This document shows positions 30,116 through 43,619 of a DNA stretch of 64,000 nt, one piece after another. The position numbers and the translations under genes were made by a program. Origin of the DNA: an uncultured Trueperaceae bacterium (lineage in GTDB: Bacteria; Deinococcota; Deinococci; Deinococcales; Trueperaceae); NCBI GenBank assembly GCA_963727505.1, contig CAVSGP010000010.1, positions 1 to 64,000 on the forward strand. Reading direction: 5' to 3'. The stretch's first letter is position 1; every line of letters starts with the position of its first letter. The notes under the pieces were generated by a model. It was not told the DNA's origin, made no database searches, and worked only from the letters and a program-made list of their open reading frames with translations.

Positions 30116-30182
30116 GGCCTTGCCTCCTCGGACTGCAGCATAGCGCACTATTGGCGCCATAGGAATGGTAGAAATAGGAACA

Positions 30183-30830
30183 ATGTCGAGCCGCGACGAA
30201 CTCCTGCGCCACCTCAAGATCCGCGGGCCCAGCACCGTCCGCCAGCTCGCCGAGGCCACCGGCCTGTCCGACAACGCGGTGCGCCACCACCTGGCGCGGC
30301 TGCGCCAGCAGGGCTTCGTCGACGAGCACGCCCTGCGCGAGGGGGTGGGCCGGCCGGCGCACCGCTACGCCCTCACCGCTCAGGCCGAAGGCGCCTTCCC
30401 CAAGCGCTACGTCGACCTGCTGGAGGCCGTGCTCGAGAGCGCCGCCGCGCGGGGCCTGCTCGACACGCTGCTCGACGACGTGGCGGCCGCGCTCGCCGCG
30501 CGCGTCAAGGACGAGCTCGAGCCGCTCCCGCCGCGCGCACGGCTGCTCAAGCTGATGCAGCAGCTCGACTACGGCGAGATGCTGGGGCGCCTCGCCAATA
30601 CGCCGGGAGGCTGGGAGTTCGAGGCCTACAACTGCGTCTACCGCGCCACCGGAGAACGCTTCGTCGGCGTCTGCGACCTGCTGCCGAAGGTCGTCGTGGA
30701 CGCCACCGGGATGGATGCAGAACGCGTGCGCTGCCAGCGCGACGGCAACCACACCTGCCACTTCGCAGGTAGCTACGGGACGAGCCCGAACGGGCAGCGC
30801 GACGGGGCGAGAGAGCGACGGCTCGTAGGG
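30183..30830 (+). CDS. Winged-helix regulator with Cys-rich C-terminus (SufR/COG2345-like); stop codon missing in this assembly, end approximate
   Basis: LS.NAVRHHL..L, GRP..RY.LT, YNC..C..C......C; runs in frame into the next gene. Confidence 0.75.
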
Positions 30831-30870
30831 CGACCGACCCGCACGAGGCACCGAGCCCGCCCGAGCGCCT

Positions 30871-30896
30871 GCATCCGGACGCCCTCCCCGTGCGTA
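30871..30896 (+). promoter_or_regulatory. Putative ECF-dependent promoter
   Basis: GCATCC-N16-CGTA, same as upstream of the ECF sigma gene. Confidence 0.55.
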
Positions 30897-30917
30897 GGGG
30901 TGGATGGAGGTACTCCC

Positions 30918-31745
30918 ATGCACGTAAGGCAGGCGCTCGTCCACAAGCGACAGGCTCGGCACCGGCGCACCCTTGGGAAGTGGGCCCCGGCAGGTCCGCT
31001 CGCCACCCGCATGCTCGCCGCCCTCGCGCTCACCGCCCTCGCACTGGGCGGCGCCGCGTTGGCGCAGGCGGTGAGCCCGACCGTCCAGGTCCGCTACGAC
31101 GCCAAGCTGGGCTACTTCCTGACCGACGCCCAGGGCATGACGCTGTACCTCTATGCCAAGGACACCCCCGGCAAGAGCGCCTGCAACGGCGCCTGCGCTC
31201 AGGCCTGGCCGCCGCTGCTGGCCGACAGCGCCACCGTTGCGCCGCTGAACCTGCCGGGCGCGTTCAGCGTCGTCACCCGCGATGACGGCAGCAAGCAGAT
31301 CGCCTACCACGGCCTCCCCCTGTACACCTGGCAGGGCGACAAGAAGCCCGGCGACACCAGCGGCCAGGCCTTCAAGGACGTCTGGTGGGTGGCCAACCTC
31401 GAGCCCGCGGTGCAGACGCTGGCGACCGCCAACGGCACCCTGCTGGTCGGCCCGACCGGCATGACGCTCTACACCTTCGGCAAGGACGGCCCCAACCAGT
31501 CCGCGTGCAGCGGGACCTGCGCCGCCAACTGGCCGCCGCTGGTCGGCGGCTACGACGTCGCCCACGGCAACGCGCCCACAGCCGGCAACGGCGTCAAGGG
31601 AACGCTCGGCGTCATCGCGCGCCCGGACGGTTCCAGCCAGCTGACGCTGGACGGCAAGCCGCTGTACTACTTCCGCGGCGACCGCTCCCCCGGCCAGGCG
31701 ACCGGCGACGGCCTTCTCGGCGAGTGGGCGAAGGTCACGCAATGA
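30918..31745 (+). CDS. Secreted COG4315 (Lipoprotein_15 repeat) protein
   Basis: Own RBS GGAGG; signal peptide; two GMTLY..KD...S.C...CA..WPPL / DG..Q....G.PLY modules. Confidence 0.85.
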   Translation: MHVRQALVHKRQARHRRTLGKWAPAGPLATRMLAALALTALALGGAALAQAVSPTVQVRYDAKLGYFLTDAQGMTLYLYAKDTPGKSACNGACAQAWPPLLADSATVAPLNLPGAFSVVTRDDGSKQIAYHGLPLYTWQGDKKPGDTSGQAFKDVWWVANLEPAVQTLATANGTLLVGPTGMTLYTFGKDGPNQSACSGTCAANWPPLVGGYDVAHGNAPTAGNGVKGTLGVIARPDGSSQLTLDGKPLYYFRGDRSPGQATGDGLLGEWAKVTQ

Positions 31746-34751: not shown

Positions 34752-34794
34752 ATGCTAGGCGGCCGCATTGTCCGGTGACAGGGACACATGTCCT
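34752..34794 (-). promoter_or_regulatory. GGGAC-N4-GTCCC-type box plus -10 element
   Basis: AGGACATGTGTCCC, 23 nt, TAGCAT on the minus strand. Confidence 0.6.
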
Positions 34795-34842
34795 GCTGCA
34801 CCCGGGACGGCCGGCACCGGGCCGGCTTGCGCTCGGTCCGGA

Positions 34843-34912
34843 GCGCTCAGCTCGGGGCGCTCAGCTCGCGGCGCTCAGCTCGCGGCGCTCAGCTCGGGGC
34901 GCTCAGCTCGCG
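34843..34912. repeat. 14-bp tandem repeat x5 (GCGCTCAGCTCGSG)
   Basis: Seen directly; the last unit contains the thioesterase stop codon. Confidence 0.9.
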
Positions 34913-35343
34913 GGCGCCGACCCCGCCAACAGCGTGGACCGTACGGCGTCCGGCACCGGCACGGGCCGTTGCGCGTCGTAGTCGAACCAGACCACCACCG
35001 ATTCGATGGTGGCCGCCCGTACCCCGTCGGCCCGCACCTCCTGGTGCAGGGCGATGCTGCTGCGCCCGATGCGCGCCACCTCGGTGGCGAGCACCACCCG
35101 GCTGCCCAGACGCACCTGGGCGTGGAAGTCGATGGCGATGCGCGCCAGGATGGGGCCGCCGCCGTCCCAGCTCACACGCCGCATCAGGGCGATGCGGCCG
35201 AGCTCGGCGTAGCTGGAGTACGCCGCGTTGTTGACGTGCCCAAGCGCATCGGTATCGCCGAAGCGCACCTGGATCTCGAGTTCGTGTGGGCCCGGCGCGG
35301 CGACGTCGGGGGTGTGGCTGGCGGCGGGATCCTCCGGGGTCAT
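34903..35343 (-). CDS. Acyl-CoA thioesterase (4HBT/FcbC family)
   Basis: VRFGDTDALGHVNNAAY. Confidence 0.9.
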   Translation of the reverse strand: MTPEDPAASHTPDVAAPGPHELEIQVRFGDTDALGHVNNAAYSSYAELGRIALMRRVSWDGGGPILARIAIDFHAQVRLGSRVVLATEVARIGRSSIALHQEVRADGVRAATIESVVVWFDYDAQRPVPVPDAVRSTLLAGSAPAS

Positions 35344-35526: not shown

Positions 35527-37922
35527 ATGCGGTTTCTGCGTGGTCTGCTCGTGCTCGTGTTGGTGGCCGCATCGGCCACGGCCTGCGCACCCGGTGTGGA
35601 CGTGGGTTCCGTGCGTCTGCCCAGCGACGTTCCCGGCACCCTGTCCGATGCCGACGCCGTCCTGCTCGACCCGGTCGGCGCTCTCGTGGGGCGCGACCCG
35701 CCCCTGAGCACCGACATCTACGACGCCACCTTCGACGCGCCCGAGCTCGACGGCTACACGCCCACCACGCCGGTGCCCTTGGAGGCGATGCCCCGCGCCT
35801 TCGACGGCAGCTACTACCTGGCGCCCGGCGACTACGAGATCACGGCCTGGGGGTTCTGCGCTCACGCCGGCACCTACGAGCCCGCCGTGGGGGGGCCGGG
35901 ATACGTCTATGCGCCGCTGAAGGGCTCGCTCGCGGATGTCATGACGCGCCTGCTCGAGGCCTCCTACCGCCACCCGGAGGTGTCGCAACGGTCCATCCAG
36001 GTCCTGTTGTGGGCCATCCTCGCGCGCACGCCGCTCCCCGACATGCCGCCCGAGTTGCAGGACACCTGCGCGGCGCCTGCTCGACGCCGACGACCTCGCG
36101 CGCCTGCGTGCGAACACCCCCAACGACGTCGGTCGAACCCTGTTCGAGCGCGCCCTGCAGCAACTACCTCCCGAGCTCCGCGAGGTGGCCCGCGCCGAGG
36201 ACCGCATCCGCACGCTGCTCCGCGGCGACAGCGTCGCCTACGCGGCGCTCGAGCGAGCCGCCGTCCTCACGGGCAACCCACCTCCGGGCCTGACCGTGCG
36301 CGCCATCCCCCAGGGCCGGTGGTCACACCACCCCGACGGCTACGACATCCGATACGCGCCCTCCGGGTACTCGGTGGTGCGCATCCAGATCCACGTGCCC
36401 GGGGCCGTCGGCGCCCGGCCCGACCCGGGCGTGATCAGCGCCCAGGGCTCGAGCGGCTCCCAGGGCGGTGACGGCATGGTCAACGCCGACGTGAGCGACG
36501 GCGCGGCGCTGTCCGGCAACACCTCCCGGCAGCGGCTCCTGAGCAACGGCACGAGCGCCGACGACAACGTCCTCGAACGGGCCAAGGACGCGGTCGGGTG
36601 GATGAAGCTCTTCGCCAACCTGCTGCCGTTCTTCGGTGGCCAGAGCCTCGAGCAGGGGGCGGTCCAGGGCTTCTCGGAACTCACCGCGGGAGCCTCGATG
36701 CTCTCCCCCGCAGCGATGGCGGGGTACCTGCTGGACTTCATCTTCAGCGCCGGCGCCGACATCATCAACGCCACCGCCGGCTACGAGGGGGGCGGGACAG
36801 GGGGCGGGGCAGGGTCCGACAACCGGGGCCCGCCATCGACGGGTGGCTCCTCCTCGGCGGGCTCCAGCGGCTCCCCGACGTGGAACGCGCACCCAGGATC
36901 GTCCGGCGGGTCCGGTGCGGGCGACAGCGGGACGGCCGGCGGAACGAGCAGCGGTACGAGCAGCGGCACGAGCAGCGGCACGAGCGGCTACCAGGACGGT
37001 AGCAGCGGGCAGCGGCGGCACCAGCGGCGGCACCAGCGGCGCCGGCGACACCAGCACCGGCACCGGCACCGGCACCGCCGGCGATACGACCGGGGACACC
37101 GGCACCAGCGGCGACACCAGTGGCGAAACGACCGGCGAAACGACCGGCGACACGACCGGCGACACGAGCAGCGGCGCGTCCGATGCCGGCGGCACCGGGA
37201 CGAGCGAGGCCGGGGCGAGCGAGACCGGGACGAGCGAGACCGGGGCGAGCGAGACCGGCACCGACGCGAGCGGCACCAGCGCCGGCGGCGGCACCACCGA
37301 CAGCACCAACGACGGCACGACCGACGGCACGACCACCGCCCCGGGCGGCGCCAGTAGCGGCGCCGGCACGAGCGGCTCCGGCGGCGCGCTGACCTTCCCC
37401 GAGGGCCTCCCCGACGACCTGCGGCGGGTGATCGAGTACCTCGTGACCACGGCCGGCGAGCTGTTGCGCGACCTGCAGCTCTACCAGGACTCCGCCGTGC
37501 GGCTCGACAGCGTCAGTCACGGTGACGCCGACGCGGGGTACGCGCTGGCCGCGCAGACGCTCGAACGCAAACGCAGCGCCGGAGTCTCCATGTTGCGCAC
37601 CTCGGCTGCGCTCGACCACCTCGGAGCCGTGCTCGATGCGCATCACCTGGGCAGTATCCCGCTCGGGGCGGACGCGGTGCGGGCCTTCCAACAACGGCTG
37701 CGGGACGAGGGCGTCCCCGAGGCACTGCGCGCGGAGCTGCGTCGCGCGGGCATGACCGACGCCGACATCGATCGATTGGCCCGGCGCTACCTGGAGCTCG
37801 ACGCCGACGAGGTTGCGGCCGGCTTCCGGCGCTCCCTGACCCGCACGGCCGCCGCCCTGCGCTCGCTGGGCACGATCTGGGCCGGCCTGCCCTCGATCCT
37901 GGCCGGCGGCACGGTCCACTGA
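35527..37922 (+). CDS. Large lipoprotein: putative thioester domain, Gly/Thr/Ser-rich linker, helical C-domain (frameshifts ~36070 and ~37010)
   Basis: Lipobox ATAC; GFC, IQVLLW and RQRLL motifs; coding-like sequence continues across three frames. Confidence 0.65.
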
Positions 37923-41681: not shown

Positions 41682-42677
41682 GTGAATCAGAGCGGTAGCC
41701 AGCGTGCCGGTGTCACGGCGCTGGGCGCGTACGCGCCTGCGCGCATCCTGACCAACCAGGACCTCGAGGCGATGATGGACACCTCGGACGAGTGGATCAC
41801 CACCCGGACCGGGATCAAGCGTCGTCACATCGCCGCGGAGAACGAGTTCACCACCGACCTGGCCTTCAGCGCCGTCGAGGACCTGCTGGCCCGCCACGGC
41901 GACGATGCCCTGGCCGGCGTGGACATGGTGATCGTGGCGACCAACACGCCCGACGCCCTGTTCCCGTCGACGGCGGCGATGGTACAGGACCGCTTCCGGC
42001 TCCGCGCCGGCGGCTTCGACATGCTGGCGGGTTGCCCCGGCTGGATCTACTCGCTGGGCATGGCCAAGTCGCTGGTGGAGTCGGGTCAGTGCCGGCGGGT
42101 GCTGGCGATCGGGGCCGAGGCGCTCACCAAGATCACCAACTGGGACGACCGCTCCACCGCCGTGCTGTTCGGCGACGGCGCCGGCGCGGTGGTGGTGGAG
42201 GCGGTCGACGAGCCCTACGGCCTGCGCTCGGTGGTGCTCGGCGCCGACGGCTCGGGCGCGCACCACCTGCACAAACGCTCGGTCGCCCACTCCCTGCCCA
42301 ACGGCGACCCGCTCTCCGAGACGCTCTACATGAACGGCCGCGAGGTCTTCAAGTTCGCCGTCAGGGTGATGAACACCGCCACCATCGAGGCGGTCGAGAA
42401 GGCCGGCCTGCACATCGACGACATCAGCCTGTTCGTGCCGCATCAGGCGAACCTGCGCATCATCGAGGCCGCCCGCGAGCGGCTGGGGCTGCCACGCGAG
42501 CGCGTGGTCGTGACGGTCGACGAGTACGGCAACAACTCCACGGCCAGCATCCCGCTGGCGCTGCACACCGCCCTCGACGACGGCCGCATCGAGCCCGGCG
42601 ACAACCTGCTGCTGGTCAGCTTCGGCGCCGGCCTCACCTGGGCCGCCGCCGTCCTGACCTGGGGGGGCGGGGCGTGA
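41682..42677 (+). CDS. fabH: Beta-ketoacyl-ACP synthase III
   Basis: DTSDEWI..RTGI, AGCPG, FGDGAGA, PHQAN.RII, GNNSTASIP. Confidence 0.95.
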   Translation: MNQSGSQRAGVTALGAYAPARILTNQDLEAMMDTSDEWITTRTGIKRRHIAAENEFTTDLAFSAVEDLLARHGDDALAGVDMVIVATNTPDALFPSTAAMVQDRFRLRAGGFDMLAGCPGWIYSLGMAKSLVESGQCRRVLAIGAEALTKITNWDDRSTAVLFGDGAGAVVVEAVDEPYGLRSVVLGADGSGAHHLHKRSVAHSLPNGDPLSETLYMNGREVFKFAVRVMNTATIEAVEKAGLHIDDISLFVPHQANLRIIEAARERLGLPRERVVVTVDEYGNNSTASIPLALHTALDDGRIEPGDNLLLVSFGAGLTWAAAVLTWGGGA

Positions 42678-43619
42678 GCGCGGCCCCGAGCCGCGGCGAC
42701 GCCGGACTCGCCGTCGTCTTCCCCGGCCAGGGCTCGCAGGCGGTCGGCATGGCGAGGAGCTTCTACGACCACAGCGCCGCCGCCCGCAAGGTGCTGGACG
42801 AGGCCGAGGCGGCCCTCCCGGGCCTGCTGGAGCTGATGTGGGAGGGCCCGGCCGAGAGCGCTGCAGCTCACCGCCAACCAGCAGCCCGCGCTGGTCGCCG
42901 CCGGCGCCGCCGCCTTCGCCGCCTGGCGCGAGGCGGGCGGGCCCGAGCCGCGCTACGCCGCCGGGCACAGCCTGGGGGAGTACACCGCGCACGTCGCCGC
43001 AGGCTCGCTCAGCGTGGCCGAAGCGGTCTAGCTGGTGCGCGCCCGCGGCACCTACATGCAGGAGGCGGTGCCCGAGGGTGAAGGCGCCATGGCGGCGGTC
43101 ATGAAGCTCGACGCCGCCGCCATCCGCAACGCCTGCAAGCACGTCGACGGGGTGGCGGAGGTGGCCAACCTCAACGCCCCCGGACAGACCGTCATCTCCG
43201 GGGAGGCCGCCGCCGTGGCCGCCGCCGCCGAGCGCCTCAAGGCCGACGGCGGGCGGGTGGTGCCGCTCAAGGTGTCCGCCCCCTTCCACTGCAGCCTGAT
43301 GCAGCCCGCGGCCGACCGGCTGGCGCAGGACCTGGGCCGCGTGCGCTTCAAGGAGCCGGCCTTCGGCATCGTCTGCAACGTCACGGCCGACCTGCTGCCC
43401 GAGGCGGCGGAGGCGCCCGACCTGCTCACCCGGCAGGTCACCTCGCCGGTGCGGTGGGTGGAGTCGGTCAAGCACCTGCGCGCGCTGGGCGCGCGACGCT
43501 TCGTGGAGCTGGGCGCCGGCAAGGTGCTCACCGGACTGATCGTTCGCATCCTCGACGGCGTCGACGCCGTGAGCGTGCCCGACATGGACGCGCTGCGCGC
43601 GGCGCTGGAGGCGGCGTGA
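42674..43619 (+). CDS. fabD: Malonyl-CoA:ACP transacylase (frameshift ~42857 and in-frame TAG at 43029; probably assembly errors)
   Basis: FPGQGSQ, GHSLGEY, SAPFH, SPVRW. Confidence 0.88.

Follow-up and report, generated by a model that had tools for sequence, protein, structure and literature searches.

The window, a stretch of 64,000 nucleotides from an uncultured Trueperaceae bacterium, encodes a predicted lipoprotein whose N-terminal domain is predicted to resemble bacterial thioester domains (TEDs), and this protein belongs to a large unannotated family that is TED-like by prediction and lies outside both the Pfam TED cut-offs and the TIE architecture. In the reading that we favour, and hold to be somewhat better than an even bet, a Cys111-Gln335 thioester would bond covalently to a target amine outside the cytoplasm, with the C-terminal tail as cargo. 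The feature reported in a first-pass annotation of this DNA is real: the lipobox and its positions for GFC, IQVLLW and NTSRQRLL were all correct when checked on the sequence (Table 1; residue numbers follow the intact orthologue). Among the genome's 5802 six-frame open stretches with a length of at least 250 aa, a single one has the spaced trio [YF]C..Q...W..Q.LL, and it is the orthologue on contig C3.

Table 1. Features of the gene at 35527..37922 (+)
Feature	Position in window	Strand	Basis
Start codon ATG	35527	+	Sequence
Signal peptide with lipobox ATA-C; Cys20 (35584-35586), predicted lipidation site	35527..35586	+	Sequence; same in orthologues P0001 and P0002
TED-like domain, about residues 55-343, spanning frameshift 1	35689..36556	+	AF2 model; VIA matches
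FCAH motif (GFC); Cys111, codon TGC 35857-35859, predicted thioester Cys at strand end	35854..35865	+	Conservation; maps to CpTIE Cys138
IQVLLW helix motif, equivalent of TQxxxW; Gln158 (35998), Trp162 (36010)	35995..36012	+	Conservation; helix in model
Frameshift 1 from a single surplus base; probable assembly error	36067..36068	+	C3 copy, G003 and run contigs without the base
GNTSRQRLL motif; Gln335, codon CAG 36530-36532, predicted thioester Gln directly before last strand	36515..36541	+	Conservation; maps to Gln of solved TEDs
C-terminal helical bundle, helices 1-2, Gly/Ala-rich, moderately hydrophobic	36560..36784	+	Sequence; model
Gly/Thr/Ser/Asp low-complexity tract, predicted disordered, inserted at ALGG-DP-PRxDY site within the bundle	36785..37385	+	pLDDT <50; 155 aa in C3 copy
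Frameshift 2 from seven surplus bases within a short repeat; probable assembly error	37002..37008	+	X2 contig; G003 broken differently at same place
Rest of C-terminal helical bundle and stop codon (37920-37922)	37386..37922	+	Most blocks pLDDT 86-95; no specific fold match

The reading frame of this single gene is spread over three frames by two net +1 shifts. Intact orthologues of 745-767 aa (P0001, P0002, P0152-P0154, the 752-aa C3 copy and G019) are 90-93% identical to the first piece in the window, 84-87% to the second and 75-78% to the third. The extra base of frameshift 1 is missing from the C3 copy, from the near-identical genome G003 and from contigs of three of the four runs compared (X2, X3 and X4), and in the fourth (X1) the contigs stop on each side of the site. 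At frameshift 2, a 652-base X2 contig covers 36850-37150 with zero substitutions and without the seven bases, restoring the frame; an X5 contig, which has 19 fewer bases there, likewise restores it. Against this stands the G003 copy, also out of frame there, but with different letters. We read both breaks as likely assembly errors, in line with the two indels proposed earlier. The assembly holds two syntenic copies of the region (window 1-44517 against G000:C3, 82-94% identity); the window is nearly identical to G003:C2 from 20 to 42.5 kb and nearer to C3 from about 42.6 kb. The contig therefore appears to be a mosaic of strains, and it carries further small indels. A gene at 42674-43619, which we take to be fabD-like from its motifs and context, is interrupted near 42860 by one additional base, probably through an error of assembly. 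At 30165-31745 a transcription-regulator ORF continues in frame into a secreted repeat protein, and because of several indels in the copy of G003 at 30783-30825 this fusion may be an assembly error. Short imperfect direct repeats of about 14 codons (RSARGAQLAALSS in one frame) occupy 34768-34900, upstream of a divergent thioesterase-like gene at 34903-35343. The host DNA has a GC content of 70-72%. Omp85 was found in the host genome (97% complete) and no sortase was, which bears out the claim of a diderm host outside the usual Gram-positive range.

In the AF2 model of the G003 copy, pLDDT is 85-98 in most core blocks of the TED-like domain, and the fold predicted for this domain is that of bacterial TEDs, a helical plus a beta subdomain. 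Cys111 ends strand 101-111 of the model, IQVLLW lies in a helix and Gln335 stands just before the last strand. The VIA comparison with 48,161 chains ranked the TEDs of CpTIE, Cpa, SaTIE, SfbI, FNE, BaTIE, EfmTIE86 and PnTIE 1-8; structural scores were low, and the list below rank 8 was single-helix noise. With the register taken from the VIA range ends, Cys111 falls on Cys138 of CpTIE and Gln335 on Gln267, Gln261 and Gln247 of solved TEDs, and the range offset for BaTIE corresponds to a Cys-Gln spacing of 195, the same as Cys71-Gln266. A passage of PMC4450167 defines the TED motif as [YFL]C-hydrophobic-polar in a strand, with the Cys invariant. The protein has FCAH at this place and the family YCL[HKR]; Ile replaces the Thr of TQxxxW in the helix motif, and the late Gln motif is RQRLL, though its first position is polar instead of hydrophobic. 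Mean-field DCA (203 rows) placed the pairs 64-330, 108-342, 257-331 and 143-338 at rank 2, 4, 5 and 8, and 112-340 and 113-338 at rank 32 and 51. This co-variation supports a tie of the Gln segment to the core, that is, strand docking rather than the Cys-Gln contact itself. Conservation, fold ranking and register together uphold the TED-like domain, and conservation and register against solved TEDs point to the same pair, Cys111 and the RQRLL Gln, that had been picked in the first-pass annotation; a thioester between them in the predicted domain is quite probable.

The conservation in homologues on which the first-pass annotation had made its proposal depend was also found. With P0002 as query, a full search reached 877 clusters at E<=0.001; 149 of the best 150 of these, together with the G003 copy, were aligned with MAFFT in genafpair mode (in default mode the Gln strand was misplaced), the rows having been picked by whole-protein score and not by motif. 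Among these best-scoring rows Cys111, Gln158 and Trp162 are each present in 150/150 and Gln335 in 143/150, including one row, P0054, that looks misaligned; of the seven misses, three carry the motif in an earlier copy, three end near the column and one has Arg. The three motifs have the consensus SYCLxAG, PQxxIQxLxWAI and PGNTxxQRL. The distances between Cys and Gln have a bimodal distribution (30/143 at 200-299, 113/143 at 300 or more), and the Gln motif is conserved even though it follows the Cys by 200-250 residues in 24 rows and by 350-450 in 101/143. Long members (e.g. L008:1273-2820 and L009) have a 130-230 residue insertion before the Gln strand, which opens with RDxxGRI..YDD hairpin-like repeats and closes in predicted helical sequence. 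The family gave no Pfam, NCBIfam or PDB sequence match, and the cut-offs of Pfam TED (PF08341) and TED_2 (PF20610) were passed by 0/4 window pieces, 0/35 aligned members and 0/12 further members in a search in which both controls scored.

A motif-based scan of 185,579 genomes gave 210 relatives. Among the 79/210 loci listed are members from Meiothermus, cyanobacteria, Acidobacteriota, Armatimonadota, Gemmatimonadota, WOR-3, Cloacimonadota and Aminicenantes, as well as Myxococcales, Sphingomonadales, Aerolutibacter, Stenotrophomonas, Halanaerobiales and two Bacillota/Eubacteriales; because of these titles we regard the family as mostly but perhaps not only diderm. Cultured species with stand-alone members of about 320 aa are Croceibacterium xixiisoli (L048) and Aerolutibacter ruishenii (L066), and Meiothermus hypogaeus (L014) has a long-form member. 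Two family genes stand in tandem in an Acidobacteriota genome (L034:3911-7183), and locus L072 carries two matching frames. No neighbour gene recurs across phyla at the family loci, and a literature search of mostly open-access main texts turned up no publication about the family or about diderm TEDs.

The lipid anchor proposed earlier stands, the lipobox with its Cys20 being kept in P0001 and P0002 and predicting lipidation there. A crude lipobox rule applied to 151 members gave 25 with a lipobox, 116 with a plain hydrophobic N-terminus and 10 with neither. The TED-like domain begins about 35 residues past Cys20 with no stalk between, and the part behind it is one helical domain, common to 48/161 tails and all helical in the model, as the helical C-domain of the earlier description required. 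In most relatives ALGG-DP-PRxDY joins the two halves of this bundle directly, whereas this protein has a Gly/Thr/Ser/Asp insertion of 155-200 residues there; a few relatives are likewise interrupted by an insertion at this point. The model of the C-half has a disordered loop with confident helices after it and weaker ones before it, and structural matches to the C-half span both sides of the loop. The Gly/Thr/Ser/Asp tract is therefore not a stalk between separate domains, as it had been called, and lies inside one domain. The picture of a stalked adhesin has to be given up with it: the TED is near the lipidated Cys and the tract interrupts the C-terminal bundle, and therefore the tract cannot project the TED outward. 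The C-termini of 149 members showed no LPxTG in the last 50 residues and no PEP-CTERM-like pattern, and the sortase anchor, isopeptide/ester stalk and distal TED of the TIE architecture are absent here.

The short distance from lipid to TED with no stalk between would also suit a real thioester whose target is the envelope of the producing cell itself: the lipoprotein would face the periplasm and, with no need of a transpeptidase, cross-link a membrane to S-layer proteins or to amines of peptidoglycan. Stand-alone relatives of about 320 aa that carry a plain signal peptide are numerous, and such proteins reach the periplasm by default. According to a passage of PMC8092201, a TED with an N-terminal lipid would sit either on the cell surface or in the wall. 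We consider this role unlikely, since the family is patchy (13/301 genomes of the phylum, 8/61 relatives, 1/9 other genomes of the genus), which fits an accessory trait better, and a tether does not need variable enzyme-like tails.

Tails were surveyed in 230 proteins (151 + 79, with some duplicates), of which 215 had the Gln motif. The tail is under 50 aa in 54/215, and the other 161 fall into 40 clusters, with Pfam matches, some below the curated cut-off, to M23, AMOP, papain-fold deamidase, JAB, TIG, STIG1, TSP3 and FecR. A FastTree tree built from 198 cores shows 8 changes for the helical tail, 16 for the HExxH-like tail and 15 for the absence of a tail, as against 39, 36 and 47 with shuffled labels; tails are inherited but repeatedly exchanged. 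The second commonest tail (40 members: L012, L014, L015 and 37 more) has an HExxH-like motif, HIEHEKDH in L012, and gave no Pfam match in the two members scanned. Because the TED is the constant part across the family and the tail is exchangeable or absent, the protein by prediction works like a TED, as a membrane-proximal or soluble covalent anchor and not as the tip of a stalked adhesin.

A wider reading of the same survey is tentative and, in our judgement, doubtful: the family may be a third structural TED class, spread over more than 10 mostly diderm phyla, and a general covalent delivery module stapling tails onto other cells. The TED would then be secreted alone, lipid-anchored, or placed before dozens of interchangeable tails (peptidases, deamidase-like domains, binding modules and a helical bundle that may insert into membranes), which, if true, would make it a polymorphic effector system built on thioester chemistry. 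The constant N-terminal carrier and variable C-terminal domains of polymorphic toxins are found here (161 tails in 40 clusters, and the changes on the tree). The TED might fix the protein covalently on a competitor or prey that the tail harms, the helical bundle being a membrane-inserting effector; we give this rather little credence. The structural search found no specific fold for the bundle, with ClyA-type toxin components only within noise, and there is no cognate immunity gene directly downstream, where the next gene is a convergent mutM. The encoded MutM has as best PDB match 1EE8, a structure of Thermus origin; this match, and a protein of a genome from the same order with close homologues labelled Oceanithermus, place the host in Deinococcota.

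Similarly improbable is a domain without a thioester, whose Cys and Gln owe their conservation to something else, for instance a catalytic or metal site in an unrelated or distantly TED-like fold. The low structural scores and the lack of a sequence-level link to Pfam TED would allow it, and G133, R228, A245 and W265 are among many residues equally conserved. Against it, the top structural matches are 8/8 TEDs with a register that agrees at both residues. In addition, the second copy of a duplicated domain in two proteins scanned (P0012 335-555 and P0062 407-637) has lost Cys, Trp and Gln together while its flanks are conserved, the Cys being replaced by Thr and the Gln by Asp or Glu. These degenerate copies may be dead binding domains or, speculatively, an ester-forming variant. 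Bacterial alpha-2-macroglobulin is a lipid-anchored diderm protein with an internal Cys-Gln thioester, far larger and of unrelated fold, whose CxEQ motif (in an alpha/alpha toroid) is absent here, the Cys and Gln being 224 apart. A protease trap of that kind, in which cleavage of the loop opens the bundle and exposes the thioester, would account for a lipoprotein that combines a predicted thioester with a folded domain containing a long disordered loop; it is scarcely credible, since there is no CxEQ, most relatives with the same bundle are without the loop, and its composition gives few protease sites.

For the covalent anchor carrying its tail as cargo, we propose the following course. The protein would be exported and, judging from the lipobox, lipidated at Cys20, after which the late Gln strand is predicted to dock into the core beside the Cys strand, in agreement with the co-variation. 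By analogy with Gram-positive TEDs the thioester would then form by itself, releasing ammonia. A protein of a neighbouring cell, the matrix or the envelope could attack it through a Lys-type amine to give a Gln isopeptide link, and the C-terminal helical bundle would be held at the target as cargo.

Passages of several papers treat TEDs as Gram-positive adhesin tips (PMC4450167, PMC6194298, PMC13685950, PMC9210967, PMC8286594, PMC8092201), and a passage of a 2026 paper names Firmicutes and Actinobacteria for them (PMC13685950). The present family would extend self-formed Cys-Gln thioesters to free-living diderms in architectures other than the stalked adhesin; with such hosts and architectures, the targets are therefore probably other microbes, matrix or the own envelope. 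New TED scaffolds might also be of use for coupling proteins covalently. The Pfam TED cut-off is passed by 1/301 Deinococcota genomes, so that Pfam TED already touches a diderm. A compact TED with a collagen-like Gly-X-Y stalk occurs in Oceanithermus-labelled and other proteins (L093:1-1878 (-), G166, P0155-P0169), one member being narrowly above the cut-off (22.5 vs 22 bits). It shares the Cys, QxxxW and late Gln motifs, and the order of the host, with the present family, but is a separate family of about 175 aa with a true Gly-X-Y stalk, and no significant profile match links the two. In P0169, of the compact family, Ser replaces the Cys. Class II TEDs (BaTIE, 6FWV; SaTIE, 6FX6; EfmTIE86, 6FWY; the TIE of plasmid pLS20; Pfam PF20610) have a beta-sandwich before the Gln hairpin, where the model of this protein has only a short disordered loop of low confidence. 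With class I TEDs (CpTIE-TED, 5A0G; SfbI-TED, 5A0L; PnTIE-TED, 5A0N; Cpa, 2XI9; FNE, 5DCQ; Pfam PF08341) the protein shares the motif order and its secondary-structure setting, and they are among the chains that match its structure best, both Cys and Gln being in register. Unlike them, it gives no Pfam match and has an N-terminal lipid anchor, no LPxTG, no isopeptide/ester stalk and a diderm host; its domain is also larger, about 290 residues with a larger helical part against 175-215, and its Cys and Gln lie 224 apart as compared with 129-153.
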